A stretch of DNA of 64,000 bases from assembly GCA_973895155.1 (NCBI GenBank), contig OZ316892.1, positions 22,483,168 through 22,547,167 of the forward strand, written 5' to 3'. Positions within the stretch are counted from its first letter, which is position 1. Every line of letters begins with the position of its first letter. The translations under genes and the position numbers were made by a program. Below, one piece after another: positions 3,883 to 59,494 of this stretch. A model generated the notes under the pieces. That model was not told the DNA's origin. It saw only the letters and a program-made list of their open reading frames with translations, and made no database searches. The stretch is from Marsupella aquatica (lineage: Eukaryota > Plantae > Marchantiophyta).

Positions 3883-5034
3883 TCAAAGTTCAATAGTACA
3901 CAAGAAATTTAGAGGATTAAAGTAACCCGCGAAAAGACTCTCAAATATGGTGGGGCACTCTCCAATTGACCACACAACTTGTTGGTCGTTGCTACTGAAT
4001 CCGCTGCTTTGAAGTATATACCATCCGTTGGTTCCATTGTCTCTCCTCTTCCACCTCACCATTGCTAACAGTTCATTATTCACTGGTAAAATGGATCGTG
4101 GCTCAAGAATGACAGAGTCACTGGGTCCCAGTCCATCCCATGCTATTGAACACCAGTGTGCCCATGAGTTGCTGTCACTGTTGTAAACATGGAATCCATC
4201 CGAGTTGGCCGAGTAAAACTTTTCTTGCATTATGAATACGCTTCTAATATCTGAAAATCTGTCAACCGGACCCATTCTTGATTCCACCACTCTCCACTCA
4301 TCCTTGAGTGGGTGATAAACCTGCCATGATGATGCATGCCCATTTTGACAGGCCACAATGAGCTCCTCACCCATACATGTAACTCGAAGGGGGAATTGCT
4401 TTTGTACCATGGGCATTATTGGTGACCAGGCATCCAGCTTGGGATCATACAACTCTGATGCACAAGTACAGGATGTCCCATCTGGAGAAGTACCACCAAA
4501 TACATACAACTTGCCATCCATGATACCACACTGAAAGGAGATTCTTGGTTCGAGCATAGCTGTACACTGCTTCCACTGGGTATCCCCAGCTGCCAGATCC
4601 AACACATGCATTGTCTGGTGGCTCCGCTTATTCATGCTGTGGCTCCGCTTATTCAAGCTGATCCCTCCCAGGGAATATAATTTACCGTTCAATGCTATGA
4701 AATTGGAGTTCCGATATACAGCGTGTGGGACTTGCGGAAGTTGGTGCAAAGTTCTTCCCTTGGGGGAATAAAGATAAATCCTATAGTGTCTTTGAGAAAA
4801 AGCAGTGCGAACCCGCATCTGAACGACTACACAAGTTTCTAGTGAATGGCGGCGAACTCTGGCATTGTAGACAAGTTGGCTTTCAATCACTTGCCGCGAA
4901 CTTTGATTTAGTGAAGACAGGAGAGCAGCATCTCTCCTCAGCAATTTTGTAGCAATCTCGTCCAACGCAACATCGTTGGGTATCCCTGGAAGAAGTTCTT
5001 GGGATAAAGATGAGATGATGTCTTGAGCCTCCAT
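3883..5034 (-). CDS. F-box/Kelch-repeat protein, single exon, 383 aa
   Basis: N-terminal plant F-box-like start (ELLPGIPNDVALDEIATKL) followed by Kelch repeats (LNGKLYSLGG, WKQCTAMLEPR, MDGKLYVFGG, ELYDPKLDAWSPIMPM). Confidence 0.88.
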   Translation of the reverse strand: MEAQDIISSLSQELLPGIPNDVALDEIATKLLRRDAALLSSLNQSSRQVIESQLVYNARVRRHSLETCVVVQMRVRTAFSQRHYRIYLYSPKGRTLHQLPQVPHAVYRNSNFIALNGKLYSLGGISLNKRSHSMNKRSHQTMHVLDLAAGDTQWKQCTAMLEPRISFQCGIMDGKLYVFGGTSPDGTSCTCASELYDPKLDAWSPIMPMVQKQFPLRVTCMGEELIVACQNGHASSWQVYHPLKDEWRVVESRMGPVDRFSDIRSVFIMQEKFYSANSDGFHVYNSDSNSWAHWCSIAWDGLGPSDSVILEPRSILPVNNELLAMVRWKRRDNGTNGWYILQSSGFSSNDQQVVWSIGECPTIFESLFAGYFNPLNFLCTIEL

Positions 5035-6048
5035 GAGGTTGATTTGAAGTTATCTATCTGGAAATCACAACAAGCCAAAATAGTCTCCATATCAGCAGTC
5101 AGATACTACTAGTAAGATCTCCCACAAGCACATGCAAGTCTTTTCTGCTATGAAATTTCTTCAACAAAGGTAGGTCCTAGCTTAGCCAAATCTATTCTAG
5201 AAATTCAAAAATATTCTAATATATTACAGCCACTGCATCAAAGTACGTCTCAATTCATATGGGTTCCATTAAATGAGATTTCATAAAACTAGAAGCTAGT
5301 AAAGAGAGAAACTTCACGTAGGTTTTTAGGTTTTTAAAAGTATGTACAGAGAATGCAATGAAGATGAAAGAAACAGCAAGAACCTTGTGTGTGGTGTAGT
5401 ACCCGCAAGTGCTCAGGAATAAGAATTATGAATAGGTCAAGACTGTACGTCGATCTACAGCTGGACTATAGAGTTGTCGATCAAACACAAAAAGGGAACT
5501 GAAATGCGATAAAGGTCCAAAGGATTAAACCTTCAACGAGCTTTCACATTAGAGGCAACTTGTTGAATAGCTATAGTCTCATTGCCATGGACCCAGAAAA
5601 GGTGAACACAGGGAGAAAGTGACAAGAATAAAGTAGATCGGAGGCTGAGTGCTTCTTATAACCCTTGCAGCAGCTGAAGTACATGGATTGTTGAAAGATG
5701 ATCGAATGGATGTGGCATTGACAACCGACAAGACTCCTAATCTCCCGAATTAGAGAGTTTGACAGACTGTTGACTTGATTGATGAGATAGTATTGACAAG
5801 AGATATACCCTTCCCTAGAGCTACACTTACTTACAGCCTAAATTGATATTCCCCTCATATAATCTACAGTATAGATTCTTAATTTTGGGGATATAAAGAA
5901 TTTAGTATTTCACAAATGACAATTCTTTTTATTATGAGTTTGCGGTTTTGGGGAAACTGACCAGAGTCCCTTTATTTCTTATTGAGTTGACTATATTGTG
6001 TCACAAAGTTTTCGTTTACAAATTTCACATCAAACTCAATAAGACATA

Positions 6049-6156
6049 TTCTCGGCAACTCCCATCTAAATAATTAAATTTCATCAAAAGTCATCTTGTT
6101 CTAGTAAGATGGACCCTTTGATGAAATTTAATTATTTAGATGGGAGTTGCCGAGAA
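6049..6156. repeat. Perfect 40-bp inverted repeat with 28-nt spacer
   Basis: 6049-6088 ttctcggcaactcccatctaaataattaaatttcatcaaa is the exact reverse complement of 6117-6156. Confidence 0.95.
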
Positions 6157-6941
6157 GATTACTGACTGGCAATTATGTCACAGCTAGGAAGATATGACGA
6201 ACATTTGGACAGTGACAAGGTTTCTATGATATTTGGTAAAATTAAAGCATACCTGGCTAATGACAGACAATGTGACCTCCGAATTGAAAGGATGATATTT
6301 GACAGTTGTAAAATTTTCAGTAGGCTTTCAGATCAACCTACCTTACTTTTGGAAGGTGGCGTGTACGTATTGCTGTTACCGGTCAGTAGAGCTCTCGCTA
6401 TTCCTGATCGACTGGGAAATGACTTGAAATCCTTCCGAATATCATTTAGAGGGTTGCATGAGGTTTCCTCTGTCACAAGTTATTTCGATTTAGTCAGTCT
6501 TTGTTCGTTGTGACTAGATTGGAGACATCTGTTGCATTTTGTTTTAGTCTATAGTTGAAAAATCGGACCTCATCTGTCTTGTGACTCTCGCGTAGCATCC
6601 ATCCCATTTCAGCTCCACTCTGAAAATCTTCGTCGTCACTGTGTATTCGAGTACACGAGGAGCTCATTCTGTGACATTTTGAGTAAACATTTTGTGACAT
6701 CGCCGAAAACTCGTTTAGGGGTTCGTTCGTCCATTTGGCACTGGCTGTCTTCGACGACCTAGCCTAGCAGACTACTTTCGCTTCCTCCTTTCACCTCGTC
6801 TGATTGTTTGCGCGACTGATTGACTGATTGTTTGATTGGGTGATCAAAGATCGTGACATATGTTATGATTAGGATCAGGATCTGATTGATCGATCAGGAT
6901 CTGATTGATCGATCCTGATCGATTGATTCGAAGGAACCACC

Positions 6942-7569
6942 ATGGCCACCACGGACGTTGCCCCTGTCACAGAACCTGTCAGCGCTATTGTCCAGGTGGT
7001 GGAACTTATAGAGCCTGCTGATACGGAGCCCGCCGAGAAGCCTGAAAAAGTGGTGAAGGAGAAGAAGCACAGACTCCCGACTGCTCTCACTGGGCATCCA
7101 GTTTACTTGCGGATGATCAAGGAAGCCCTTGTTTCTCTCAAGGAGAGAACAACCTCGAGTCAACACGCGATTGCGAAGTACCTGGAGGACAAGTATGAGA
7201 GCCGCCTTCCTCCCAACTTCATGAAGACTTTGACGGTTCAGCTAAAGAGTTTGACGCAGAGTGGGAAGGTGACGAAGGTGAAGCACTCCTTCAAGTTGTC
7301 GGAAGAGCCAAAGAAGGCACCGAAGAACGTGAAAGCAACCAAGGCCCCTGCAGGCGCATCGAAGGAGGTGAAGAAGAGTGCCGGCCGGCCAAAGACAAGA
7401 CGAAGGTAACCTCTCTCAAGGTTGTGGAAGGGAAGCAACCCTGACGAAGCCTGCAAATGCAAAGAAGAACGTGAAGCCTGCCAAGACTCCAGGTAAGAGG
7501 AAGATCTCAAGAATGACGCCTGCAAAGGAGTCTGCTAAGGCTCCACCTACGGAGAAGGTCTCAAATTGA
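6942..7569 (+). pseudogene. Histone H1 (linker histone) copy, intronless, with frameshifts in the lysine-rich tail
   Basis: H1 globular domain HPVYLRMIKEALVSLKERTTSSQHAIAKYLEDKYESRLPPNFMKTLTVQLKSLTQSGKVTKVKHSFKL; ORF stops at 7409 while H1-like K/P/A-rich tail sequence continues in the other two frames (KTKVTSLKVVEGK; KPANAKKNVKPAKTPGKRK to 7569). Confidence 0.75.
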
Positions 7570-11227: not shown

Positions 11228-11922
11228 TTTAAGTTACAACTTCAATTGACAAACAATACTCAAACCCTTGAATATATGTGTACCAATTGCTTTAACTTAT
11301 GACCTTATTGATTTTGAAGTTACAAATGGGATCAAACATTATAAAGACCCTTGTAGATGTGTGTACCAAAATGCCTTGACTTGTCACCTTCCCGGATAAC
11401 CTAATTTTGATTTTGAAGTTACAACTAGGGTCAAGCAGTACACTAACCCTTGTAGATGTGTGTACCATAATGTCTTAACTTGTAGTTACCTTATATTCAT
11501 TTTATAAGTTACAACTGGGGTCAAACAGTACACCGACCCTTGTAGATGTGTGTACCAGGATGCCTTAACTTGTAACTTTATATTGATTTTGAAGTTACAA
11601 ATGGGGTCACACAATACACCGACCCTTGCGGATGTGTGTATCAGAATGCCTTAACTTGTAACCTTATATTGATTTTATAAGTTATAGTTGGGGTCAAACA
11701 GTACACCGACCCTTGCAGATATGTGTACCATGATGCCTTAACTTGTAACTTTATATTGATTTTGAAGTTACAACTGGGGTCAAACAATATACCGACCCTT
11801 GCGGATGTGTGTACCAGAATGCCTTAACTTGTAACCTTATATTGATTTTGAAGTTACAATTAGTGTAGAACATTACACCAACCTTTGGATATGTGTGTAC
11901 TATAGTTTATTGCCTTAACTTG
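11228..11922. repeat. Tandem array of ~8 copies of an ~86-bp unit
   Basis: gttaca/gttata anchors at 11508, 11594, 11681, 11767 and 11853 (period 86-87), with older copies at ~11233, 11318 and 11418; consensus ttgattttgaagttacaactggggtcaaacagtacaccgacccttgtagatgtgtgtaccag.atgccttaacttgtaaccttata. Confidence 0.95.
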
Positions 11923-14894
11923 AATAATACGATATGGACCTTATAATTATAGTACCCGATTGATAATAAACCTAAGTGAATAATTTTAGGTACAAAAAGC
12001 TAACTTCTTCATTTTTGAAATCCAACAAAGGGTAGATTTCACTTTCTTAATATGTAATGCTCTGATAAGATAACCATAACAATATGAAACAAGATTACAA
12101 AAGACTCATCTACCTACCAAGAGCATTGCTTTCTACAAATAAATTGCAAATTACAATTACTTATAGTTTTGTTAAGATTACATAAATCTATTGTGTTGAT
12201 TCAAATAAAAGCTCTAAGTGTTGTGGCAAATAATTAATATACTAATATTTGCACATCCATATATGATAATGCTACAAATTTTTAGCTAATCTGATAATTT
12301 ATTTGAAAATAAACACTATTATGATAAATATTACATAAGCAAAAATTAGATTTTAAAGTATAGATAGATTCCATGCTTGATTTAGCTTTATGAGTTAACA
12401 ACTTTAGCAATCACATTTATTCAACGAGGAACAAAGAGAGAAACAAACCTCTATTTCAAGCTTAGATGATAGCTTGGGTTTGTTTCTTAGTGATGCCAAA
12501 ATTTGTCTACAAACTCACACAAAATTGCTCATGTCAATTGAATGGACAAAATATCAAGTCACTTCACAAATAACAAATAAACACAAATTCTAGTCATAAA
12601 AAACATGCACTGATATAAACATTTACCTTGATGGTCGTCACCATGAGAAATCTTAAAAAAATATCTTGTATGCCACTTGAGTGTAGCTCTCCTAGGTAGG
12701 CCTTATTCAAACATATTCCTTGAATACACACCAAAAAAATCATAACTATAATGTCAAAACTCACTTGCACATTCAAGACTAATAAACTATTCTCAAAAAA
12801 TTAAACTATTCTATTATTATAAAATCTCTTCAAAAATAAGGCTATGACTTTCTATTGATTAGTAAAACATACATTTAAAATACAGAAATGAAATTAGTAT
12901 GTTTCTTCTCTCATGAAGGTGCCTGTATATAAAGTTACTCTCTTCCCAACATGATCATTATGATTCTACACTTATGGGTTTTTTCTTTGTTTCCATTTGC
13001 CATTAAAATTGATGAGAATTTTATTTTTGTCATTACTAGACAAATCATGATGAATAAATTACACTTTCCAAACAAAAAGTATACTTGTCTCCCCACAAAA
13101 CAATTAAAAAACTAATGCTATAAATAGTGTTTGAGTTTATGAATTTGTTTGTTAGTGATGTCAACTTTTATTATGCAAACTTCAAATACTTTTAAAAACA
13201 TCTCATAATTTTATAGACAAGTCCAATGCATAATTATCCATTGCACCAAAACATTGCAAGACAATGAAGTGTAGGTGATTGCCTAGCTCCTTGCCTCCAA
13301 GATAGTTTGTTGCTCACCCTTGTGATGAATAATTTGTCACTCGAACAAGCCAGGTGATTGCTACAGTGAGGAGTTGCAATGTGAATTACATAGAGAGGTG
13401 AAAAGAACATGAGAGAGGTGGAGACAAACAAAGGATGACAACATTAAGTAGCACACTAAAAGCTCCTTCCAAATTCTTGGCACTGTATTTGGACACATCA
13501 TAGAGTTTTGGCAGACTTGATAACCAGGAAAGACCAGAAAAGAGAATTAGTAAAACAAAAAATACAATATTACCAATGTGTTAAAAAAATTGAGTTGGAC
13601 CCACATACTAGTTTTTCCAAATTTCATTGGTTTGTTTTTACATCTTTTAGGGGTTGTATGCTAAAAGATTCCCCAAGGGTCACTCTGTTGTGTTTGGACT
13701 CTATGATGTGGTGGCCACTATTTTGCGTCTTCTTCAATCTTCTTCTTCTTCTTAATTTTAACTTTATTTCACGTGAACACCATGGATAGGAACCAGCAGG
13801 CCAAATGGCAGACACACCAAAAAGGCAATGGGGAATACAATCATATTAAAAGCTAGGCACTGAAAATCCAATTTTGGCAACAACAAAAAAATAATTCACA
13901 ATTATTCAACAATATTTTTAAAAAATTGTCTTAGACATATCTTGGGTAGTCAACTCCCCCTTTCTATAAGACAGATTTTTATAACTGGAATTTACTAGAA
14001 TACCACTCTTTTGTGGCTTAATATTTACTACCTTGCCACCCTTTTTCTTCTATTTATCAGAATGCCACTCTTTTCCATCACGGGTCAAGAAATGTTACTC
14101 GAGTTAACCCCTGAGAATCCTACCCCTCAGACTTCCTTCACGACCCGCATTGGATGGTTGATGCCCCGGTTGATGCTTCCCTCGCGGTTACTTCCTTCAA
14201 CCCTCAGTTTTCTCCACACAGGGGTGGATCGGCTGCCACCACTCTTTGCCCGGGCTCTTTGCATTTTGGTTTCCCTCCCCGACTGCCCTTTTACTCACTC
14301 TCACACCCCCAACTACTGTGCTTGACGCGATGACTGTGTCGCTGCTTCAAGCTACAGGCCCAACCATGCGGGCTCCCCGATTGTAGAAATCTTAAAATTC
14401 TTAAAATTCTTAAAATAATTAAACACAAATTGTAGCAAGTTTAGGAATTTTTGATAATGGTATGTGGAAAAGAAGAAAATAAATCTTATACATGACTCAG
14501 AACTTTTTCAAAGTGTACAACCCAGGTTATTTCAAATTGTATTCTTTTTAGCCAACCTTTTAGTCCATAATAAATGTAAACCCCTACCTAATATATATAC
14601 AAGAGTTGAGTGGGTGGGAGATATATAATAAAGAATACAAGGTTTTCTATTTTTTCATTTATATTTTTTTTACATTTATTTTGGGGGTTTTACACTAGGT
14701 GATTCCCAAGGGGCTTTGGCTTACTTAGTGGTAGACCAGCTGAGGAGAGGGAGGACTGCAGGTGCCGGGTTCATCTCATAATTGCACCCTTGACTGTTTT
14801 GACACAAATCTCACCCAAAAATGTGATTCATGCAAAGCTCTTAAATGACACTAAAAAAAACAATGGTTCAAACTCAATTTTGCAGGCAACTTGA

Positions 14895-18718: not shown

Positions 18719-20443
18719 TTACCTGACTGGGATCGATCAGGGTGACATCTGTCGGATGTTGGACCCCAATGCCCCTATTTGTCGGACAAGTTCAAACCGC
18801 GCACTTGCTGCACTCACCACCTTTTGTGGAGCTCAAGCCCATTCGTGCATCTGTGCGTTTTATAATGAGAGCTAAGTGTAACCTGTAACTTTTTATAGGT
18901 GCCATTGTGGTTTACTGTGTACAGCCGTTAGTGCTCAACATTTGAAAGTTGAAAAAAAAGTATTTTTCAAAAGGATAGGAATGTTCTATTCAGAACACTG
19001 AAGTCCAATGAATTGATTGTGCAGCCAGCCAGAAAGTCTAGCGGCATGTCCCCACCAGCCCCCATCCCCCAAAGCACAGGCCAATTAAAGAGGAGTGGCC
19101 CAATGCCCAATTTTGTGTACGGTTATATATTACATATGGCCTTAAGGTGGGCCTTATAATAACTTACTTGAGGGCACAACTAGTAACTCTTCACCCAATC
19201 ATAATTGCAAATATAAGGTCACCTGCATAGACTAGTTTAATGCGTGAGGCAGATGAGACAGGTCCAGAGAAAATAAATGCAAGATATTGTATAAAAATGT
19301 ACTAAGATGCAGATTTTAGACCACCGAGGTGATCTAAGATTTAGATTTAATATTAAAAAAAAAACATGGCCACTTCAGCAAAAGGACTAGGAGGTGGCTA
19401 AGATTTGTATTGGTCTTGCCCAGGTTTTGCCATCTCGTATTGTGCCCCCAAGTTCATGTAAAGTGAAGGCTGGAAAGGTCTGTTCCCACATTGAATGACT
19501 GATAGAGAAAGAAAGAAAGAAAGAAAGAAAGCTTCCTGCATCCAAGCTCTTGTATTGCCTCCCTAGTGGGATGACAAGCTAGAATCCCTGAGAGTGGTTA
19601 GCTTGATGGGTTTACAACTCATAGGCCCCAAGAGGCCATAGATTATTGGGCTTAGCTCCTGAGGATATTTTTGCTCTATTTTCAGCAGACAGACAACTGC
19701 CGCGTGAGTCTCATAATCCCTCAGCAATGAGCAAAACTACAAACAAAGAATGCACTCAGGCAAAAAATATATCTAGGCAAGAATATGTCCGAGATTTATT
19801 CAAAGCCCTTAGCAAACAATTTGCCCAATAAAATTGAAGTAAACCCTTCAGACACACCAGCTATGAACTCAAGATGAATGCCTGAGTGGGTTTACACGCC
19901 TTCGCCCTCCTTTAAACCACAGCTGCACTCCCCTTCAAGAGCTATACATAGGATCCCAATTTCAGTATTCACGTACAGTCAATTCTTCGGGAAGTAGGGA
20001 AGCCCCATTAGAGTAAAAAAGTGAGTGGAATCTGTAAAAAGGGAGAAATCATGGACTGTTTATTGTTTCATCTCCTGGGACACTACCTTGTAAAGGCACG
20101 GACTGAAAGGTACAGTAGGTCTCCCGCTTACTCTAGTCCTCTACGAGTCTGTGGTCTACTGTAGATCAGTACTAGGTTCTCCAGAGGCGGCTTCGTTTTT
20201 GCCACGAAACATTCACTTGAATCGATTAAGAGAAACAGAACACAAGTCGACGGAAGCTCACAAAAGTGAGAGGAGGCGGCTGCTTGTTGTGAGGAATTGA
20301 GAATTAGGAAACTGAGTCTAGGAGTACTGTATGTAATTCATTCCTCAGTCAACGATCCCGTTCAGGATTCAATTCAAGATTCAATTCAAGCGGCAGCTAC
20401 TGTAGATGAGATTGGTCAGCAGCCCCACCCTCTCGGCTCGCAC

Positions 20444-20450
20444 TATAAAT
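20444..20450 (+). promoter_or_regulatory. Candidate TATA box for micropeptide gene A
   Basis: TATAAAT with a reverse CCAAT (attgg) at 20411 and a pyrimidine-rich leader downstream, ~430 nt before the ATG at 20873. Confidence 0.4.
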
Positions 20451-20872
20451 CTATGGAACGACCATCTGCTCAACGTACCTTTCAGTCATCGATCTCCAGT
20501 AGCTCTCTCAAAATCCAATCAGATTCTCAATCTCATATGATTCAAAATTCACACTCAGACAACTTACCACCTATCAGCTGACAAGCTTATATTCAACTCT
20601 CTGCCAAGGATAATTCGTCTCAGAGAGCGGAGAAGTAGACTGTCTACCAGGCTCGCAGAATCTTGTCAGTCTCTGTCTCAATTCACATCTGCTACAAGTT
20701 TGAATTAGCCTCGAGCTTGATTTGAATCGCTTAGAGGAGTTAGATTCGTCCCTCAACTGAGAAGATCCAGAAAACTGAAGTGCGCATTGACAGCTGACGT
20801 GACCAGTACTACTGTTCAATTGTCTACGGAGGCTTACATAGAATTATGGTTAACTCAGAAGTCGCGAGGGAA

Positions 20873-20947
20873 ATGGATCCCAACGATTTGTTCACAGATG
20901 ATGATTCTCCAGCGTGGCTCACGGCCTCACAAGGCGACGACTGTTGA
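20873..20947 (+). CDS. Putative 24-aa acidic micropeptide A: MDPNDLFTDDDSPAWLTASQGDDC
   Basis: ATG in good context (gaaATGG) to TGA; paralog at 29137-29217 is 18/24 identical with synonymous differences. Confidence 0.7.
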   Translation: MDPNDLFTDDDSPAWLTASQGDDC

Positions 20948-23699
20948 AGGCGAATTATGTGTTGTGCAGACAAATTTTCCTGTCATCACGTCTCGCGCGC
21001 CAACACATACATCTAGAATGCCGTCTGTTGTGCTGAATTCGGATGGAAGAGTTGGAGATTTTCAATGGAGGTTTGTAGGAGCGATGGGACGGAGGTGCCA
21101 TTCAAGATGTTGGGAAGCTCTAATTGTCCCGGGTGAAGATTTGGGGTGTCGACCGCTGAAGCGTTCAAAAATTCGACGCTGCATTTCGCCTACGACCTCA
21201 ATTAATGGCATGACTTCAGCAGTTACGGAATGGATCGATCATACAGAGGAATCATACTCACATTGAGGTGTAAATAGAATTTAGGTTTATATGCATGGGA
21301 GAGTCGTACTCACATTGAGTCAGTCTTACCTAACAGACACATTCATAAACATTTTGTGTGAAGAAAACCTCAATCAGATCATCATTATCACATTTTTGGC
21401 CCACTCCTAGGGTAGACTCATTAGGTTAAATTCCATTGCATCTCTAGAAGGACAATATGTACAGATTCTTTACATTTAAAATGATTTTGAGAAGCCCCAC
21501 CATTCTGAGGCTTCGATTACATTAACTACGTCTCAACATTGTAATTGGACACAGCACTTAAGTTTTAAATTTGAATCAGTTAGGATACTGGAATTGCAAC
21601 TTGTGTCACTTTGGGAGTTTTGCCTTGTCAATCTGTACAATGTCCATAACTAGACACAATCTGCAGAGTCTTGAACAGGATCTCAATGCCTCATTTCGGG
21701 AATGCACAATTTTGAGAAGCCCCACCATGAGAATCAACAGAGCCGGGCCGAATGAAAGGGGCCAAATCTGACTGACGTATCCGTTAGAACATTATGCAAA
21801 GGGAATTCGATTCAAGGCGATTGTCGCGAGGAGTCAGTAATCAACTCCTCAAGACTCCCATCGAAGAACAACGTCCTTAACCCTATCCTACGATGAGAGG
21901 TGCACCGGCAGTGCATCCGTCAGGGAAAAAGGAAATTTCTAGGCTGGCCCTAGGTGGAAGCGGGGGTGGGACCAGCCTAGCCGAGATACTTTTCCAGTTT
22001 TCCTGTACGTCGAGAGTGCAAGTCAGAAGATAGAATGGGCCCCATAAGCCGCCATTCTGTCAACATCTGCCGTGTCAGCAATCTTACGCCATTCAGTACG
22101 TAAATGAAGTTTGAGCATATGCCCACATTTTAGCAAATCAGTTCGAGTCATGCTATTGGTTCAATATAGAGAGAGACCGGTCTGGAAGGTCTTTCCAGAT
22201 TTGCCGACATCAAACTCACTGATGAGAGGTTTGTCGTTGGCAATATCTACACTGCATAATCAGCCTTTTGCTAATACCCAAAACTTTCTCAATTTGGATT
22301 CCTAAGCTGAGCCAAACGTGTCAAGTGGGGAAGTTAAGATCGGGTTTAAGACACTTTAAGGAGAGCACTAAACTTTTTTTTAAAGAAGGAGAGGAAATTT
22401 GGAGCATGCTGCTCATCTTATCTTACCCTAATGTTAGAGCATTTCCAACCCTTACCCAAAAGCTTTATGCTAGCTGGACCTTGACTCAACCCAGTAACTA
22501 AATTTCAAGAAGTCATATCCAATCCATTCATTGCAATGCTATCTGATTCGAAGCCATTGGGTTTAATTTTGTTACTGGACCTTTAGTGGAAGAAAATATA
22601 CACTTTTGAGTTCTTAGTTGTTGGGATTTCAAGATTGTAATTTACCTTTGCTGTGGAGCTGAGCTTTACTGTGAAAGGAAATAATCCAATGAGGGCGGAG
22701 TTTAATTGATTTATTACTGGTACCGAGCAAGCTTAAAAGGATGTTGTCAGATTGGGTGTAGCTGATTTCTAGTGTGAAGGAAATTAATCTGAGAAATGTG
22801 GAGGCCGAATTTATTTTGACCATAAACAAGCTAAAAAATGGTGTTGTGAGCAAGGGTGTGAGCCTGCGTATATATTCTTCACAATAACCAAACCGAACAA
22901 CATTCACATGGAGATGGAGATAAACAAAACTTTATGGTTTCAGCAATCTTCAGGGGACATTGCAATCCGTCAACTGGAGTCCATTTGCAAAGAAACAGTG
23001 GCTGGGCCCCATCAATGAGACAACACATTTTAAACTCTTCAAGAAACTGTTCACAACGATGACTGGTTTCGGACCTTTAATTTGATGGAGCGGACCCCAC
23101 AATCTCTTTGCAGACATAGCCCTATTATCCCGACCTATTATAGGCACTTCTGGTCTCTCCATTCTCGTTCAAGGGTCCCGCAGATATGGCCTGTCGAGTG
23201 GCTGTTTGACGTTGAATGTCTGGTGAAATTGCACGAGGCGTCAAAGACTACAGCTCAGCCCTGAGAAAATAATAAGCATCTTCCCTACGAAGTGTTGATG
23301 AGAACGAGAACGTACATAGTAAGTCACCAGTCAGGATCGAGAGAAGGCTAACGAATCCCTTGACGTTCCCCCCATCTCCCGTTTGTTCATGCATTGGTAA
23401 TTAGTCCGTTCAGAGTGATTCCGCGAATAGCGGCCAGGTCGACGGATCAGCTCGCAGCCAGCAATTGGTCCACTCATCTACAGTACCTGAATTTTTTGGT
23501 CATTGTCAAATTCTGTATGAAGACCCTTGACATGACGGCAAGAAGTTTCTCACGAACGGCGAATTCCCAGACATACCTGAAGACTCGGAGATTTTTCGTC
23601 AAGCGCTCATGCCCCTGCATCGTTGAATCTCAAGTTAGAGCGTCCTTTTCGAATTGATTTCAGATGAGAAGGACCCTGACGCAAATTGTTTACTGCGTA

Positions 23700-23844
23700 T
23701 GAACTCTAGGCAAAATCGCCGCTAACCCAGACGTATTATTCATGGAAGTTGTCTCAGAGGTTGACCTTGAACTCTAAGAAAAATCGCGGCTAACCCAGAT
23801 GTATTAATCATTGAAGTTGTCTCAGAGGTTGACCTTGAACTCTA
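23700..23844. repeat. ~68-bp tandem duplication
   Basis: tgaactcta...gctaacccaga.gtatta.tcat.gaagttgtctcagaggttgacct occurs twice. Confidence 0.85.
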
Positions 23845-25382
23845 GATGTCCAGCTAGCTAGAAATGAATAAAAGAAGGTCATAGTTTTAAGATAGACTAG
23901 AAATACTCATTTTATCCAAATTTCTCGAAGGAATCTAATTAGTTTTCACGGAGAAACATCATGATTCCTTGAACTGAGAAGATCCAAATGAGTCGCAGGC
24001 CAGTCCGCAAAACGCAATAAATCTAAGCTCAAATGACTCATGAATCAAATTTCAGGCGATTTTCAGAGCATCAATGAGGGCCGGAATCGCCAACAATCAT
24101 AATCGTCTCTCACAAGGGATCGCAACTTCAAATGCAACTTCACATTATCTCCTTCGACAGGCCAGCAGATCGGATTACTGTTTCGAAACCTGTAAGTTCT
24201 TTAGATCGGAATCAGCCCATCTTAAAGTAGACAAAGAGGAGATTCAGCTCTGAGTGCTGCAAGAATCGAGAATTCCCAATCAAAGAGGAATCTATTAAGT
24301 GGATAAACAAGAGGTTCAGTACTGCAAGAAACAGAGAATTTCACAATTAGGAAAGTCATCTGTGCAAATCATCTTTTGGAGCTCGCCAGTCCAGATCCTT
24401 TGGTGTAATATGAATTCTTTGTGGGAGATATCAAAATCCAGGAAGAGATAGGCCGCTCAATCTGAGACTCTTTCATTTGATTACGTAGTCTGTGGCAGAA
24501 AACTTCAATAGCAGAGTTTATCTTTGACATTTTGAAAAGAAGAATGATTTAATTGGATCCAGCTAAGTAGCAGTAGACAATATTCTGATTTCATCACGGT
24601 GTCCATTGAACCCACTCAGTGGCTGTGTCAATTGACCCACTTGATCACGTGATTACGTGGTCGTTGTGGAGATCTTCCGTACCGTTGATCTGAATAGTAA
24701 CGAGGATGGAAGGGTTGAAAGCCCTTCCTTAATTTGGTAAATGGAGAGACTCAGTTGCACGGCAAACTGATGTTTTGGGGGTTTCGCTTCGGCTTTCTCC
24801 ACACATAGAAAAAAAAACACATTAGAAGGGACGGGTATGACCAGCGATTCTTGTCATACATTTCTAGGTGGCAAGGTGACAAGTGTTCCCCTTGTGTCTA
24901 ACCAATTTCTTGGGAGTCGAATTGAGCCAATTTATGGGAATTAGAATTGGTGTCACCAGGTCTTAGTGCCTGTTTACATATTAAACGTAACCCCACAGCT
25001 CCACCCCACTAAATTTGTCTAAGATATAATCTGGGCCATTGGAAAAGCAAAAAGGAAAAAGTTCACTTTACATGGTCTGAGACCCATCGTGGTTTGATAA
25101 TTCCCAATCCTCAGCTTGGGTAGATATTGTCTGGCTTTTCAAAGTTGTCTGGGTTGTTTAAGTCACAATATACGAGGGCTCATGAGTCTAGCGCCCAAAA
25201 ACGAAGATCACCTCGTAGATGGGATTGGGGTTCAATTCATTCACTTTATTTGGAAAGCCAATGGGAAAACTTTTAGGCCAAAAGGATGGAACTAAAAAGT
25301 GGGGCTGAGGTCATGTCAAGTGGCCCTTAGATTCTGACACCCTCTTGTAGAGGACTGGTGGGTGTGTGCTTTTTGGCCAAGT

Positions 25383-25630
25383 GTGTCACACGGATCTCCT
25401 TTTGATGGAAAGTGTTCATCTCGTAAATTATAATTTATAGAGGAGAAAAGGGGAGATAAAGGACTGCTATGATGGAAGAAAGGGCTTCCGCTAAGTACAA
25501 TTGCCATATCGGGTGTCACACGGATCTCCTTCCGATGGAAAGTATTCATATCGTAAATTCTAATTTATAGAGGAGAAAAGGGGAGATAAAGGACTCTGCT
25601 ATGATGGAATAAGGGCTTCCACTAAGTAAA
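25383..25630. repeat. ~130-bp tandem duplication
   Basis: gtgtcacacggatctcctt...ttatagaggagaaaaggggagataaaggact...ctaagta at 25383 and 25513. Confidence 0.9.
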
Positions 25631-26828
25631 AAAAATACTTTAGTCAGTGTCTTGACATTGCCATATGGTCAATCCACCTCTCAGTGTTTTGTTTATTTCA
25701 ATATGCAAGAACAACTGAAGGTGCATCATTTGTATTATCTACATTTTAGAGTATTTTGACACCCTTCTAAGTATATTTAATCTTCTTGTGCTAGAGTTCT
25801 TCTTCCCCTCTACATATAGTTTTCAATTCAATGCATTCCAACCATTTAGCAGATTTTATGGAATTTCTTGCAATTGTAGTGAATGAGAGAGATTTGATAC
25901 TTTGAGAACTGGACTCCTCCTGCTCTAAGTCCTCCTCAAACTTTTATTTGCCTAGCTTATGTTTTGATTGTCATTACTTAAGGTAATTAGAGGATCTTTT
26001 GTACCTTATGTTGCACAATTTATGACTGGTTTGAGTATCATTAAAACAAGTTTGAACCTGTACCTTATGTGCTCAGCTTTTCGGGAATTGTGCACTTGTA
26101 TTTTTCCCTAGGTCCTCATTTCTTTTCTTTCTACCCATCACGCGTTAATAAATATAGTGTTTTTTAATTGGGTTTAGTGAAATATTTTTACAATTTTTTT
26201 AAGAACATTAGGGTTATTTTAATTCTAACTTTGAGAATTATAAGAATCATATGGTTTCTTTAATCAGATTTAGGAATATTCTTGGAATATTCCATGAAAT
26301 TAGGGTAATGATTATTGCATAGTGTTAGCTAGGGTCGAATAGTAAAAATGCAACACATGCCAAATAAATATACATGTTAGATTATGAGCAGGAAACGTTG
26401 TGGAGACTTCAATCCAAGGGGTGTCCCATATCACGAGCCAAGTTTTGGGGAAATAAATACCCTAAAACTTAAGTCAATAAAGTTTTTTTTAGTAATTTTT
26501 TCACCCCTAACTTACACATTGGAGTCAAGGGGTTTGTGTGCAACTTGGTTAACTTATGAAGTTTGGACTTCCACCCTCACTTGCCACATTGAAAATTGGT
26601 ATGCTTGTTGGAATAATTAATGTCAAGTAAATTTTCTAGTTATGTGGATCTGGACACCAGGTAACATTCAGACCTGTGAAATCAATACATACTCCCTAAA
26701 CATGTCTTCACGTTGTGTGGATAACTGGCAACTTTGAATCATGAGACCCAAGACAACAATATAGCATATTAGTTCTAAGACATAGCTATTTTAACTTATT
26801 GACAATATATGAGTTTCCATGTCACTTC

Positions 26829-27100
26829 TAGAGTTACCCTAGAGGTGTTTCTTGGTTGGGTCCCGGGAAAACTCTTTTTCCAGAATTGCTCTAGTGGTGT
26901 TTTCCGGGTTGGCTCCCAGGATTGCTCTAGATGTGTCTTTCCGGGTTGGGTCCCGGGAAAACCCTTTTTCCAGAATTGCTCTAGAGGTGTTTTCCGGGTT
27001 GGCTCCCAGAATTGCTCTAGAGGTGTCTTTCCGGGTTGGGTCCAGGGAAAACCCGTTTTCTAGAATTGCTTTAGAGGTAATTTCTGGGTTGGTTCCATGG
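26829..27100. repeat. Minisatellite of ~38-52-bp units
   Basis: About 6 copies of agaattgctctagaggtgt.tttccgggttgg.tccc, some extended by gggaaaaccc.tttt. Confidence 0.9.
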
Positions 27101-29136
27101 AGGGAATGTTCCCCTGAGGTGGGCTTCCCGGTGTCTTACACGATGCCTTTCTTTGACTGAACTTTCTGGGACCGTATTTTCAGAAGTATTACATGTCCTC
27201 CGACAATAGGAATGTCAGAAACAGTAGTGTTCAGATTTATTGGAGCACAAAAGAATCTCACAAACAGTGATGTGCAGACTCTTGTGACACAAATCTTTCG
27301 TCACGGGCCTGGTTAGGCTATTTTACAATACAGGACTGTATGTCTGTTTGCAATCACGTAACTTTCTGGTCGCTGGAAGTGGTACGCCGCCACCGCGGGT
27401 CAAACAGACCTGGTCAATACGTGCACACTAAGTTGCGGATCTATTGGGAAAAGTGCTGACTCGATGATTGTGTTGGCATCTGGGTCCACATTTTGCCGGT
27501 CACTGCACATAGTTTTGACCTTTTTCCGGGTCTTAATGGGCACTGAAGGCCAGTGAGCTATCCACTGTAGCTGTGAAAGAAATGATCTCGAGTTCACCAC
27601 AACAGGTTTCGATTGATTTCCGTTTTGAGCTCTTGTGTGACGGGGATGGCTGGGAAAATTCAGAAATGTAGCTGAATTTACTGTACTTTAGTTCCATGTG
27701 GGCCAGATTGACATTAGACACGGTTTCGCTATAGGCTGGCATCTCGTTAGTGCTACGCAAATGACAAATTCAAGCAGGTTACGTCTTAATGGACCGGTCT
27801 CTGAATTGTCGCGAGTGGTGACCATCTATAGGTTTCAAGTAGAGGCGAAGCAAAAACGACCGTCTGGGCCATCCGCATTGCCAGTCGCCATCAATTTCTT
27901 CATCCTTCCTTTTAGTAGCCAGAGTTTCCCGGTGATTATTTTGTTCCGCATCAATCCAAACATCGTGGTGAGGGCGTGTACAATTGGGTTTTAATGTACA
28001 GCTGAACCGAAGAGATCCTCCAAACTCCTAATCACTTAGAAGGTCGTGAGGACTGAGGTCAAATGACATTTTACAGAAGGTGAAAAGGCCACCTCTATCT
28101 CTATCCTGTACTTAATTGGTAAAGCCTTTTTATTCCGGCTTCAAAGTGGACCTTCTCTGCAGTGACATAGAATGGCGGCACAATTTGAAGTCCCTAGCTA
28201 CTCGATTCATATATTACCTCATAGTCTCATACGCTTCGACGAGCTCTTCAAAACAACATAATATGCCAAATTGAATTCAAAGGCAAGACTCAGAGTGAGA
28301 CGTGAATAGTCAGGCGAGACTGACGAAAATGTAGAAATCATGGTAAAGATTCGAGGCCATTATGTGCAAGTAGATGCCAGATTAACTTGCCAAATACCCA
28401 GCACACATTCAATGAATCACAAAATCTAGATTTTGCAAATATAAACCAGCCTGGAAACAGGAACACTTGGGTGTGATGGACGTGGACACCCTTCAATCAT
28501 GGGAGTCTCACGGAGAATTCACTGATGTTAAGATATATCTGTACATGGAAGCTTTCGTAGGAACTTCAAAGAATGTAGGGGGCGTTCCCCTCAGGGAACA
28601 CCAAAGAATTGTGAGTCGTTGTCTAAAGCTATTCGTGAGGATGAGGTCCAATGAATGTCAAGGGCATCCTTCCTCTACAGTGAGAGTAAAATTTGGCGAG
28701 CTCCAATGAAGCGATTGTTGGGCGCGCTTGTGAAGAAGGATCCCCGTGATTTTGTCACGGTCCTCCATTACTTCAGGAATGGCCATTTAATAGAAACGCT
28801 ACTTGACCCGTAACCGGATCCAGCGGTGCCGAATTTTGAATGCGGAAGCTGAATTGCTTTGAAGAATGCTGCGACGTATCCTGAAACCATGCACTTCCGG
28901 TCTTGAAGCTGGCATCTTGACCAAACTGCTCAATTCAAAAGCTCAATTCTTCGTCTCTACAATTCACTAGCGCCAAATTCGTTCTGCGATCTCCCGATGC
29001 CACTCTATGGCAACTCCGGCTGCCCTGACTCCGGCTCGAGCTCTCTGGCCCGTGGTTCGATCGAGAAGTCGAATTGATCCTCCACAAAAAATGTGTGTCA
29101 CACACTGCCTAGTAGCGCCCCAGAGCAATGAGACTC

Positions 29137-29217
29137 TCAGCAGTCGTCGTCGTCGCCATTGGAGGCGGTGAGCCAAGCTGGAGCGTCGTCGGCGTAGAAC
29201 ACACTGTTGGGATCCAT
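29137..29217 (-). CDS. Putative 26-aa acidic micropeptide B: MDPNSVFYADDAPAWLTASNGDDDDC
   Basis: Minus-strand ATG at 29217 (atcATGG) to TGA at 29137; paralogous to 20873-20947; CT-rich leader and TATA-like tattttaa near 29573-29580 upstream. Confidence 0.7.
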   Translation of the reverse strand: MDPNSVFYADDAPAWLTASNGDDDDC

Positions 29218-30593
29218 GATTTCTGAACTGCCCGCGATGAAGCGACCCTCAGCGATTGTTGAACTATTTGCTGAGTGATCCTGTAAGTCTTCTGATTGAG
29301 GATTGAAGAGATATTCAGGGACGGTTGAACTATTCCCGATCCTGTGAGAAAGTTGCTGAAACTAATAAATTATGAAATTAACACCTGAGATTTGTTTTCG
29401 ACACCACTGTTTCGCCTTTTCCTCAGAAAGTGGAACACACCTGAATTTGAGAATTGAGCAAGAAAGTGAGAGTCGAGAGACACAAGGAGAGGTGCGAATG
29501 TGAAGTAGCGAGCACTCGAAGAGTTTGTTGGTGATGTCTGTTGAATGAGATGGGAAGCAGACCAGCCGGTCCTTAAAATACAACGGCCCCAAGGCAGGGA
29601 CGAGGAATACGCGTCGCCAAAACGTTGGTAAGAAGCCGCGCATTTGGGGGGGGAGGGATCTCGTTGACCGATGTAAAGAGGACGACCTTTTCGTCAGTTT
29701 TGAATGGTTATGGCGTCATTTCATCAATCTTTAACACCACCACTACCACCACCGATTAAATAAGGGGGAAATGTCCAAGACGGACTTCCCGTTTAGCCAG
29801 AATTTTTTTCCCTTTTATTTTCCACATTCCACTCCTTTTTTTCCCTCTACTATGCCTATTTTCTCTTTGCTCCACAATTTCAAGAAAAGGACACTACTAA
29901 TGATAAAACTGGTGTATCTAGGTTTTGTTTTGGCTAGTGGTGGTTTAAGACTGGCTTCACAAGAATGGGCCTAATGGCAGACAAGTCCGTTCATCTGGAA
30001 GCCAAAGTGCAAAAAATTGCACATAAAGGAAACATTGGTCTCCACGTGGAATGGCCCTTGTTCTCTGCACGCCTCCATAGCTACCCCATAAGTGCAATTC
30101 TTTATCTATTAAAAAAGGTAAGTATAATTTGATAGGGTTGTGCGTTTAGTTACCAATAAGTGCTCATTTACACTTATCAATGTTTTGTGCTTGAAAAGAT
30201 TTAATTTATTTAGCAAGAGTTTCAGGCTGTTTTGTACTTACAAAAGCTGCCAAAAATGTGCAAATTCCGTGAGCAAAAGGCCCTGGGAAAAGGGAAGAGC
30301 TTGACACCTTGCAATTATCCAGGTTTGGTAGTTATGGCATGCACTTAGAGAGAGAAAACCGTACAAGGCACGGATTTGGACAGTGAAGGTCCTATGAGCC
30401 TAAATGTTTAGCAAAGTGCTCAGATGGACCAGCGCAACCTATAGGACTCATATAACAATTTTCCTTTGTAGATCAATTCATACTTTTCTGGTCAAGAGTG
30501 GCCTGGTCCATCCTGGCTGCAAGGTTCATGGGAGTGGTCTATCCAAGCATTACTTCCTTTAGACTGTGTTATTCATTACCGCTGGAGTACTCT

Positions 30594-30730
30594 CCATGGA
30601 TCACCAGCATGTTTGACCAAATGCTGGGATGCTGGGACCAAATTTGGTGACCATAGTTCCCATGTTCCCATAAATCACTAGCATGTTCCCATGGATCACT
30701 AGCTATGTTTGACCAAATGCTGGGATGGAC
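30594..30730. repeat. Short degenerate tandem duplication
   Basis: ccatggatcac.agc.atgtttgaccaaatgctgggatg occurs twice with a partial copy between. Confidence 0.75.
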
Positions 30731-31717
30731 CAAGGTAACCGAGCCTCTAAAGTAGCAACTTTTTCTTGAATAAGTGATCGTTGTTTTGATCCATCAGAGT
30801 GCCAAGGAAAATTTTATGGTCATCTGAGCATCAACTTCGGAGCACTCATGATTGTATGGGAGTTCGGGTACAGTATGTAAAATTGTAGATGCCCAAGTAT
30901 ATCATAGGTGCCAAAGTATAACTTGTCTGAAGGAGAAACTGTATTAAGATCAGTCAGACCTTCACAACTGACGGTCAATTATTATTGTTGGAAACCAAAG
31001 CTACAGTATGCATGAGATCCATATTAGGTTTATTCCTCAGAATATTAATTTATTTTGGGTCTCATTTTGAGAGGAGAAGGGAGGGAAACCGAGCCTGAAT
31101 TGGCAGTCTATTACATTTAAAACAAAAGCTCACATGTACTAAATTTATTTTGTTTTGAAAGAGAGCAAAGGAATTGAACCAAATTGCATGGTTGAGGGCC
31201 AGGTCGAGGGGAAAGGTCCATCATGGCTTCAAATTCACATCCTTGATGTAGCAAGTCGACAGGAACAAATTCCTGGTCTTTGTAAGCTCAATTAATAACT
31301 AATAGATATTTTTATTAGCTGCCAGACCTTGACTTTTGTAGGGTACTCAGAAATCTTGGGTCCTAGCTACAGTAGAGATGTTGGTGATCACCCACCTCTA
31401 TGCCAAAGAGTGAAAGAAATACCAAAATTTTACTTAAAATTGCCACTGTCCATGACAAAAAAAACTTGGATCCACCAAGTTTCACCATATTTAGTATCTT
31501 TTTCTTGAAACTGTGGAGCAAAGTTTCACTTTAGAGGAGAAGAATTATGTGAAAAAAAGAGATGTCTTGGACACTTCTCCTTTTATAGAGTTTTTTATAC
31601 AATGGTGGTTTAAAATAAAAGACCAAACTATGGGTTCAAAGTTACTCACAAGTCAGGTGAGGTGCCGGTACTGTTACCACAGACCACACTCAAATTTACC
31701 TCAGTGGTATTATAGTA

Positions 31718-31990
31718 ATAGTAGTCCAATGCCCGTGCGTTGCACAGAAGATGTTGAGGTGAGAAATAGATTTCAAGATGAAAAGAAAATGTTGAGGTGA
31801 CTCAAGGAAAAATGTGAAGGAAAAAAAGGATGTCAAGGTAAGGAAAAGATGTTGAGGAAAGAAAAAAAAACTTCAAGGCAAGGCAAAGTATTGATCAGGG
31901 CAAGAAATGATACGGAAAAAGATGTTCAAGCAAGAAAAGATGTTCAGACCAAAAAAGATGTCAATGGAGGGCAAAGACATTGCGGCTACG
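31718..31990 (-). mobile_element. Helitron-like 3' terminus (degenerate)
   Basis: Minus strand reads ctgtgcaacgcacgggcattggactac, resembling the plant Helitron 3' hairpin gtgcaacgcacgggca followed by a CTAG-like end (here CTAC). Confidence 0.6.
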
Positions 31991-32649
31991 TGGTTATTGC
32001 GACCATGTTGCTGCCAAGCCCAATGCCAAAGCATTGCATAGAAACATTGACACTGTAAGGTAAAGAAGTGTCGATTGAAGGCTGGGGATTTTAGGTGAAT
32101 CCTTTGAAACTGAAAACATTGGATTTGCCATAAATCTTTTTTGCTCATTTCATGTGGAAATTGTTGTCAATGTGCAGATCTTGTTCAAAATAGCACATTA
32201 AGTTATGTAATTCAAGTCGACACAAAAAATATGGGCTCAAATGGGTAGTGAGAGTACATGATTGGGCAAGAGAAGGCCAAGAAATCTTAATAGTTGATGA
32301 GACAAAAGTTGGAACAAAAGTGGGGACAAAAGATGCAAATGGGGGCAAAGAGTTGGGCTCCCCACTGGGGCAAAAATTTGGGCAAAAGCGAGACTAATAG
32401 GGATGACGGGCATGCCAAGCAAGCCACGTATTGTGGAGAAAAGATGTTGGGGGCCTGATCTTATTGGCATTTACTGAAGGAGCATTCTTTATCAAGTTTT
32501 CTAAAAAGACTGTTTGAGGTTTAAATGGATTATAAAAATTTGGGACCATTTTTCTACAAAAGCTAAACACAAATAAAAAGAATCAAAAAATGTAAATACT
32601 TTCACTTTCACTTTCACTTTTGCATTTTTATTTTTATTTTGGAACCCAA

Positions 32650-46100: not shown

Positions 46101-47125
46101 TAAACTGAGCTATCCATGAAAGGGCCATGTCACGCTTTGACAGAAGGTTGTTTTTGTGGAGTGCGATATGCTCAACCTTTTTCACCATGCCACGTTCCCA
46201 GAAAGAACAGAGAAGCCCTGAACACTACAGTGTAATAACAAGAACTGCAAGACATATGGAAATGTCAACGTCTCTAATCCTTCCCGTTACCGCAGTTTGT
46301 ACATTTATGATCAAGTTTTCGTTCCATTTTTCCGAGGGGGACACGTTCACTAGTTTCAAGTGAAAAAATTTGAGCGCGTTGTTAAAGGCCAAATTGACGT
46401 TCCCACCTGATCAAATCGAATCAGAATTTAGACCCTACCCACAAAATAAAGGAAACACTTCTCCAAGATTTCTCAGTCATATCAGAAATCTTTTAATCCC
46501 CCTTGTGCAGATTAGGTAATTCTTGATACTTCGTCCCCTGTTCGTTTTGATGACCTCTTGGTGTTGCTTCCAACCCTGGATTCGGGGTAGGTACTGTACG
46601 TTGCTAGTCCCAGAGCCCAAATGACCATTAAGGTCATATTGAGTTGAAGAAATCGTAGATTTCATTTCATTCTTGTCAAAATTTGGTGGGACAAGATCGC
46701 ATATAGACAAAGATGTTTCTAACAAACATTGCAAAATTTAGTTAAAGTGAGATATCCATCTGTGGATGTTCAAGTCATCCATTCGCTCATTCTTGTGCAA
46801 ACTGGGTTTCAAAATGAGAGTTCAGAAATAAACCTGCCTGCAATGCGATGACATCGGGATTGCACCGCCGTACGAGCTCGAAAAGTTCGGCTCGATTATT
46901 CTTCACCCGGAGCAAGAAACTGTTGGCATTCCAGGAAAGAAACTTTGTCGGATCTTCTCGTCCCCCTCCTGCTGCTGCTGCTCCCTCTCTCGCGCCATTC
47001 CCTAAATTCTCTTCTTTCTCTTCGTTCTCTTCTTTCTCTTCTTTCTCTCCATTCCCATCCACAAGAACTCCATTCCGCTTTTTGATGGACCCATCTTTCT
47101 GCAATGGCTGGAAAAATCGTTTCAT
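43124..47125 (-). CDS. APE1L: AP endonuclease APE1L (ExoIII/EEP family), 9 exons, with a 1-nt frameshift in exon 4. Exons 47125-46838, 45925-45848, 45553-45400, 45021-44824, 44384-44306, 43976-43915, 43728-43642, 43518-43415, 43251-43124
   Basis: MKRFFQP start, KFLSWNANSFLLRVKN, PDVIALQE, WWSLAGSKYSGTALL, LNTYVPNNGWK, WCGDLNVSH, GQPGFT, YRGKRMRIDYF and GSDHTP match Arabidopsis APE1L; splice phases are consistent. Confidence 0.92.
44391..44568. repeat. ~89-bp tandem duplication in APE1L intron 4
   Basis: gcacatcataccaaacatatcc.ttagatagcc.aaaccccatcctgct...gtcaagctggttcatgaaaaaattc at 44391 and 44480. Confidence 0.9.
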
Positions 47126-48364
47126 GAACTCCAAATGAATGGATGAAAAAAGGTTGAATCTGGAAGCTGAGTGACCAGACGGAAAAATACTGCAGGCAAA
47201 TAAGGTGGGTTTGGAGAAGTCCTGGCATTCCTGTCTTTTCACTCCATCTTTCGAACAGCGGAAATCCTCTGGTACAGCTCAAGCACGAGATCTCTCGACA
47301 GAAGGCAAGGCAAGACCAGAGCCCAAGAGCTAAGCTAAGCTGAGCTGAATGTACGTCGAATGTTCTTTCACAAATTGAGCAAATCCAATTCACTTTGGTA
47401 GACTCTGGTGAGTGATTTGAAGTCCAAGCGTGGGTTCCATAGAGCCCACTTCCATGTTCCCCCACCCTAAGATAACCCCCTCACCAGCCTAGCCTGGGGT
47501 TCCCAAGTCTCATAGTCCTCAACCAAACTGGCAGTCTCTAAATTTCGAAATTTTAATGTTAAGGGTTACGGTTGCTAACCCATGGCCTGTTGGGGCCATG
47601 GCTGGAACCCCCTCGGGCTCACCACCCTCAGGGACTACAGCCCGTAAACCCTCTGAGCCATGGGTTACCATACACCATAATTTTTGAGATCTCTATTTGT
47701 TGTTAAAGTCACCTTGTGTGACGGTGGAAATGCTATGAACATTTATTATCTAATTTTCTTAGATTAATTTCTGACTGCCAGATCTCTATAGATAAACTGA
47801 TCACTGTTAAATTATGGCTAATGGGGTCTGTGGCTAGGTCGGAAATTGGCTAATGGACAACAAAAAACCTGATGATTCTTTTGCCAAGAGTGGCTTAGAC
47901 TTTTTAAAGAGCTGGTATCTAGAGAATTTTTGCCACTAAAAGAAATGCTGGCCCCTCCCACCCAACATTCCTGTCCAGGATCCAGGCAAAGATTTAGGGC
48001 CAATTCCCATGATTGTGAACACACTTGAAGAACCTGGGTTTTGCATGGAACCCAAATTCTCCCATGGAAGGCTCCCAAAAGCTTCAGGCTTCCAAGTGTT
48101 TCCCGTACATTTCAAAAGAATTATGTGAAGAATGTCAGGTGTTTTGCTTCCAGCCCATAACCCTCTCCAGGCCATGCCTTGCCCTACACTTAAACCCTCC
48201 TTGTGAATCTTAGTTTGCATGTACATTGGAGGTTATGGGTCACATAACTCATACAAAGGACTGCAGCCTGGCCATGGATCAGGGACATGGCCCTAAGTAT
48301 TTCCAACATTCACTTGTTGGGTTACTCTCACTAACCTATAAGAAAATATAGTGTTTTAACAATT

Positions 48365-51142: not shown

Positions 51143-51418
51143 AATCTGAAACAGGGGGCTCTACATTATCAACGGAGTCCGCAACATGGCAGGGGACCCG
51201 TTCTCCCTATGCTTGAGGACGCATTACCATTGAGGATGGTCATAGGTGCAGCCTTTAGCTTACTTTCAGTCATACGAAGCTACCCTTCACTTGATTTGCC
51301 TAAAAATTTTCGAATCCCCAGGAGTCGGGTGATCAACCTGCTGACGATGTGGAAACCACCAAGGGAGACAGAGAGAGCGAGAGAGAAAGAAACACTAGAA
51401 GTCCTTGATTGTCGCTCA

Positions 51419-55429: not shown

Positions 55430-59494
<4,065 letters not shown>

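Follow-up and report, generated by a model that had tools for sequence, protein, structure and literature searches.

The IRON MAN (IMA)/FEP peptides of plants are encoded by open reading frames (ORFs) of 23 to 86 amino acids (aa), carry the defining C-terminal motif G-D-D-D-D-x(1,3)-D-x-A-P-A-A, are induced by iron deficiency, and disturb the BTS-bHLH interaction, as described in bioRxiv 10.1101/351635 and PMC10167411. They are reported there in angiosperms only and not in gymnosperms, ferns, algae, or fungi, and bryophytes are unmentioned. Bryophyte peptides encoded by short ORFs (sORFs) on otherwise non-coding-looking transcripts include the moss PSEPs and FAMOSS and the Marchantia SGF candidates (PMC6724668 and PMC9901580), and the pair of micro-ORFs reported here would be of this broad kind. 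The pair was found in the liverwort Marsupella aquatica, in a 64,000-nucleotide stretch of contig OZ316892.1 (positions 22,483,168 to 22,547,167; the whole analyzed stretch is hereafter called the window, and coordinates refer to it). Judged from the sequence, the two ORFs are very probably real peptide-coding genes.

Copy 1 is located at 20873..20947 (+) and encodes 24 aa, and copy 2 is located at 29137..29217 (-) and encodes 26 aa. The copies are convergent with 8.2 kb between them. Each encodes seven Asp and no basic residue, ends in TGA, and has a purine at -3 and a G at +4 of its start codon. Both ORFs and their translations had been proposed in the initial annotation and were recovered on re-translation. 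Likewise, re-alignment of the peptides returned the proposed identity of 18 of 24 aligned residues with two Asp codons as the sole, in-frame indel, and a recount found all six of the synonymous codon pairs; the differences at codon positions 1, 2, and 3 numbered 5, 3, and 9, respectively. The flanks had been described as weakly similar at most. This description was accurate, as the 473-nt flanks aligned at or near shuffle level, their scores being reached by 46 of 200 shuffles upstream and 10 of 200 downstream. Moreover, when 19000-25000 was compared with 25001-32000, the ORF pair was the sole significant match (blastn, 76.8% over 69 nt, expectation value (E) 3e-9), and the runner-up had an E of 0.12. 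No third copy was found in the window by a profile search of its six-frame translation.

When 1.84 billion protein representatives were searched exhaustively with HMMER, a third family member emerged, P0121 (E 5.5e-7). P0121 is a 44-aa protein from Logan, encoded on a single contig of 1269 nt, and its core starts at its second Met, in register with the conserved Met of both copies. Within the first 18 residues of the core, 15 are identical to copy 1 and 14 to copy 2. In each of the three members, the ATG marks the beginning of the homology, and M1, D2, P3, N4, F7, D10, D11, P13, A14, W15, L16, T17, and A18 are invariant, while the positions that vary among these 18 residues (5, 6, 8, 9, and 12) all fall between Pro3 and Pro13. 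Counted from the conserved Met, the members have 23-26 aa and a grand average of hydropathy of -0.7 to -1.0. Every member contains seven Asp, no basic residue, no His, and Pro only at positions 3 and 13. The C-terminal tail is rich in Asp and Gly and differs in length and sequence. Accordingly, the motif proposed earlier, MDPNxxFxxDDxPAWLTASxGDD(DD)C, was retained in part: P0121 keeps MDPNxxFxxDD[SA]PAWLTA and has an acidic tail behind it, but the terminal Cys of both window copies is absent from P0121 as recorded, the record possibly being cut at the contig end. The same HMMER search returned two other proteins, P0122 and P0123, and both were rejected as family members because their scores were sums over repeats, namely over 10 stretches of P0122, a long repeat protein, and over four repeats of P0123, a Plasmodiophora protein. 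Separately, residues 10-15 of P0121 form a second D-P-N-x-x-F, 13 residues upstream of the core, which suggests a partial duplication of the 5' end of the gene or a two-motif form.

The comparison of copy 1 with copy 2 by the Nei-Gojobori method (NG86) gave 7.75 synonymous differences (Sd) at 15 sites and 9.25 non-synonymous differences (Nd) at 57 sites. The resulting synonymous divergence (dS) of 0.88 and non-synonymous divergence (dN) of 0.18 correspond to a dN/dS of approximately 0.21 (one-sided Fisher p 0.005), with the reservation that NG86 inflates dS where transitions dominate and that the ORF pair is a small sample chosen post hoc for its similarity. Among the frames that matched, the coding frame was the best conserved between the copies, at 74%; the second frame reached 56%, and the reverse-strand frames reached 48-62%.

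Haplotypes were compared using DNA contigs of a related organism from runs X3 and X4. Run X3 contained two haplotypes approximately 4% apart, one of which matched the window, and X4 matched in part. A further run, X1, was identical to the window and may be its source. Between the X3 haplotypes, 37 substitutions were found in 28800-29700, and copy 2, with its 81 nt, contained none of them (Fisher p 0.028). The longest difference-free block of this interval, 29096..29219 (no strand assigned), takes in the whole of copy 2; over it, the haplotypes collapse to one piece with a depth of 70, close to the sum of both (29 + 44). In the open frame upstream of the copy 2 ATG, six of the eight changed codons were changed non-synonymously, so the coding constraint would start at the conserved Met. 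In the case of copy 1, 15 of the 16 substitutions of X3 piece 17 could be placed, all of them outside the ORF. With a dN/dS of this size, a third member, and a copy 2 that is unchanged between two haplotypes, the earlier proposal of an old duplication under purifying selection on the peptide was supported. Purifying selection on the reading frame, as for sORF-encoded micropeptides, is indicated by these comparisons.

Two observations on the same runs are added here. A distance of approximately 4% between two haplotypes is unusual in a haploid-dominant plant, and X3 is possibly an allopolyploid or a mixed sample. In addition, X3 and X4 each contain one contig whose match is confined to 29161-29198, i.e., 38 nt of copy 2, with unrelated GC-rich sequence following on both sides; the flanks hold neither MDPN nor an acidic tail, and these contigs probably reflect chance or another organism.

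In terms of function, the reading preferred here, tentatively and at a little under an even chance, is that the genes encode stand-alone, unsecreted, disordered micropeptides that would dock on a partner protein through a short linear motif and tune this partner by competition. A TATA-type promoter of its own would drive each copy, with translation beginning at the conserved Met. The conserved N-terminal 18 residues would dock on the partner with the Phe, Pro-Ala-Trp-Leu, and Asp-Asp residues as the binding surface, and the variable Asp/Gly tail would add charge. The partner would be tuned through competition in the way IMA acts on BTS, with a different peptide family. A disordered acidic chain with invariant aromatic, Pro, and Asp anchors is the usual anatomy of short linear motifs, and the Met-Asp start is presumably N-acetylated by NatB. 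Disorder without a stable fold is predicted for the micropeptides; the family alignment gave an AlphaFold2 model of low confidence (mean predicted local distance difference test score of 56), too poor for a fold search, in which no helix of at least four residues was present. A signal peptide is not possible in 24-26 acidic residues, and there is no hydrophobic N-terminus.

Together with the reservation on dS, several points weigh against this interpretation. The family is known from three sequences only, and P0121 may be a third paralogue of the same group. The invariant block at copy 2 runs on for 41 nt beyond the stop codon, and of the 820 windows of 81 nt, 45 show no difference, almost all of them within 29096-29219; some of the depletion at copy 2 may be due to non-coding constraint or chance. 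At copy 1, the position table of X3 piece 17 is incomplete, with one substitution and 11 gap letters not placed, and the alignment of an X4 piece ends at 20879, inside the ORF, with four letters remaining. Because of these unplaced differences and this alignment end, a lesion of copy 1 in a relative is possible. Moreover, two upstream ATGs could lower or change the translation of copy 1. One of them is in frame, 27 nt before the conserved start (20846..20872, +), has a purine at -3 and a G at +4, adds nine residues to give a possible 33-aa form, and has no ATG counterpart in copy 2. The other opens a 14-codon upstream ORF (uORF) with a weak start context in the predicted leader (20537..20581, +). 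Finally, the motif matched no larger protein; a word-indexed search of proteins of 22-72 and 73-2000 aa found nothing, which is a weak negative since P0121 in the same collection was missed too.

The micropeptides resemble the IRON MAN/FEP peptides in being very short, unsecreted, Asp-rich, present in several copies, and missed by annotation, and competition for a partner is proposed by analogy. However, IMA peptides have a variable N-terminus and a conserved C-terminus, whereas the N-terminus with its invariant Trp-Leu is conserved here and the Asp tail is variable. The echo of IRON MAN/FEP suggested in the initial annotation did not extend to membership, which was ruled out: the defining C-terminal motif is absent, none of the members has APAA as its C-terminus, and their DDAPA-like stretch lies ahead of the Asp run. 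The same comparison bears on the possibility that the products are Asp-rich peptides that bind or sense metals in the manner of the IMA Asp stretch, for which in vitro binding of Fe2+, Cu, Zn2+, and Mn2+ is reported. With seven Asp and no basic residue per member, and with six GTAC cores in 19973-20806 upstream of copy 1 compared with a window mean of 3.1 per kb, this possibility has some appeal. It is nevertheless unlikely, as the invariant part is the DPN/F/PAWLTA core and not the Asp tail, no member contains His or the IMA motif, P0121 lacks the Cys as recorded, and the GTAC excess is small and without a match upstream of copy 2.

A leaderless signaling peptide, released from cells or acting at a membrane receptor, would agree with the size of the products and with the retention of paralogues, both of which are typical of plant signaling peptides, and leaderless cases exist. 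Still, this alternative is improbable because the micropeptides have neither a signal peptide nor a prodomain and no Pfam match (E up to 1), and their conservation is N-terminal with a C-terminus that varies in length and sequence. For the same reasons, i.e., no signal peptide and conservation at the N- and not the C-terminus, a secreted post-translationally modified peptide hormone was rejected.

The position of the two Pro residues raises a further alternative, in which the ORFs encode precursors of a peptide that is synthesized ribosomally and modified post-translationally (RiPP). A prolyl-oligopeptidase-type cut after Pro3 and ring closure at Pro13 would release the variable acidic stretch of 10 residues as an acidic cyclic decapeptide, leaving a leader of three residues and AWLTA plus the tail as a recognition follower. 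Pro occurs exactly twice in each of the three members, at 3 and 13, and all five variable positions of the first 18 fall between these two. The short unsecreted MSDIN and annomuricatin precursors are defined by conserved flanks around a variable core and by cleavage at Pro (PMC5159998 and bioRxiv 10.1101/647552). The window copies share with the MSDIN precursors of Amanita and Galerina (PMC5159998) a tiny unsecreted precursor, two conserved Pro, a terminal Cys (missing in P0121 as recorded), and Ala-Trp-Leu straight after Pro, a tripeptide that also opens the phalloidin core. The AWL stretch itself cannot be an MSDIN-type core because no Pro follows it; the MSDIN feature of two Pro around a core of 6-10 aa fits residues 4-13 only and not a core that starts at AWL. 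On the other hand, the leader and follower are far shorter than in MSDIN (3 vs 10 and 10-13 vs 17 aa), the precursor has 23-26 instead of 33-37 aa, there is no Leu-x6-Leu follower, the host is a plant, and no sequence homology is shown. The core is strongly acidic and invariant at 5 of its 10 positions, whereas the cores known from these sources are hypervariable and hydrophobic. The plant orbitide precursors (annomuricatins and segetalins; bioRxiv 10.1101/647552) are similar in their short transcripts and ORFs, their conserved flanks, and a Pro at the possible core end. Unlike them, the members have an acidic and not a hydrophobic core, processing is hypothetical here, and the three members do not conserve the orbitide-type arrangement, whose core opens with Gly behind a conserved Glu/Gln and has Pro/Ala at its end. 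Neither a peptidase nor a BURP domain was found in the window ORFs scanned, although short exons may escape the scan, and the Pro-to-Pro pattern was spotted post hoc in three sequences. A RiPP precursor is hence considered quite unlikely.

It would also have to be considered doubtful, to a high degree, that the ORFs are not stand-alone genes and instead belong to a larger gene as an exon or a relic (a lectin repeat blade, for example), are a piece of a transposon, or form a conserved non-coding element. A fragment of this kind could account for a weak, repeat-summed match to 4oit_A in the PDB (E 0.0047 for the whole chain, 15-79 for single stretches) and for the 48 open codons with a possible splice acceptor at 29342 upstream of copy 2. 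The D-x-N-x-V-x-Y...W spacing of 4oit_A is presumably that of bulb-type lectins. These lectins form a three-blade domain with Q-x-D-x-N-x-V-x-Y sites, and a repeat of this type was rejected for the micropeptides, which are single units of 24-26 aa without Gln and without a Pfam match at the above threshold. Against a fragment, the homology starts at the ATG in three members, the open stretch upstream of copy 2 carries mostly non-synonymous changes, and the ORFs have a single-copy-like depth, in contrast to the repeat at 25700-26800. Furthermore, no RNA structure was found at the ORFs (z-scores of 0.1 to 1.3), and the synonymous bias indicates constraint on the peptide. The least probable explanation, and a very unlikely one, is an action in cis on the own transcript as a conserved-peptide uORF, a peptide encoded by a primary microRNA transcript, or a ribosome-stalling peptide: the size range, the long leaders, and the strong start context are compatible with it, but a translated search between the loci returned only the peptide and no second homology or homologous downstream ORF, no downstream ORF had a Pfam match above the cut-off (very short exons may escape), Rfam gave no match, the best minimal folding free energy index of a candidate microRNA precursor was 0.67 (sliding windows over 20400-22600 and 27400-29620), and the distance from the Trp to the stop codon varies between members.

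The databases searched held no further relative. Both window peptides were absent from the protein collection on exact look-up, no viral contig matched, prokaryotic genomes gave 0 matches to a degenerate pattern, and the ESM Atlas returned no usable match for either query. Six of six metagenome loci were rejected as chance matches, lying within longer GC-rich ORFs of bacterial appearance without MDPN. The searchable literature gave no match to the motif strings, and a query combining Marchantia, BRUTUS, IMA, and iron was also without result there. The family differs from the bryophyte sORF peptides, as none of its motif strings occurred in the supplements of PMC9901580 and PMC6724668 as far as these were searched (the latter without file 1 and files 25-28 and with only part of the moss sORF file). 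The micropeptide family has apparently not been described before, within a comparison that does not take in the 2021 moss microprotein catalogue gkab816.

With regard to gene anatomy, the only TATA-box match in 19450-21700 lies at 20444..20450 (+), approximately 430 nt upstream of copy 1, and is the predicted core promoter of this copy. For copy 2, a non-canonical TATA-like element is predicted at 29572..29580 (-). The predicted 5' leader of copy 2 (29218..29580, -) comprises 363 nt without any ATG, so the micro-ORF would start at the first AUG; an ATG-free stretch of this length occurred in 15 of 2000 shuffles and in 12 of 2546 real windows. This leader may contain a GT-AG intron of 99 nt (29342-29440, -), which is predicted only. 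P1BS, heat-shock, and the other promoter motifs scanned showed none prominent as common to both copies.

For the neighborhood, ORFs were filtered by length, GC content, and complexity, and 239 of 403 passed. No Pfam match above the curated cut-off was obtained in the 62 ORFs of 19625-30793, and no such domain was found from approximately 7.5 to 46 kb among the ORFs scanned (these 62 and 224 filtered ORFs elsewhere); similarly, no recognized modifying enzyme was found beside the micro-ORFs among the ORFs scanned. Farther away, the Pfam scan identified a kelch-repeat protein (3883-5049, -), a linker histone H1 (6927-7409, +), an exonuclease/endonuclease exon (46787-47278, -), ArsA/GET3 ATPase exons (55594-58546, -), and an LSM-domain exon (62956-63171, +). 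The best match of an HVA22-like ORF (51419-52408, -) is a Calypogeia fissa protein, which shares 78% identity with it along the full length; Riccia and Marchantia follow among the named matches. By the lineage of this best match, the window appears to come from a leafy liverwort. The HVA22-like gene has its entire 326-aa coding region in a single ORF without interruption, and its tail is rich in Pro and Tyr. Repeats of very high copy number occur at 25700-26800 and approximately 29800-30100, with a summed contig depth of up to approximately 100,000 in X4, and these repeats between and beside the two genes are likely a non-autonomous transposon or satellite. Between the kelch and histone H1 ORFs, 6037-6168 forms a near-perfect hairpin with 52-nt arms that are 90% complementary and a 28-nt loop; it has no Rfam match and may be a miniature inverted-repeat transposable element or a small-RNA precursor. 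Tandem arrays are present at 11250-11924, 26845-27114, and 50577-51144, with periods of approximately 86, 90, and 137-159 nt, respectively.

Peptides of fewer than 30 residues fall under gene-calling cut-offs, and entire families may thus go unseen. In the present case, three lines of constraint are available, i.e., the divergence of the paralogues, the third member, and the invariance of copy 2 between haplotypes, and the sharp motif can be searched for in bryophyte genomes and transcriptomes. As far as can be judged from the sequence, the family belongs to the broad known kind of sORF-encoded unsecreted peptides. If it is also present in Marchantia, knockout and partner finding would be feasible. 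If the Pro-to-Pro reading were true, the family would represent a bryophyte RiPP class convergent with the fungal MSDIN logic and a new class of liverwort natural products. If, instead, the preferred reading of micropeptides that tune a partner protein by competition is true, an unsecreted regulatory peptide family would be added outside the flowering plants.

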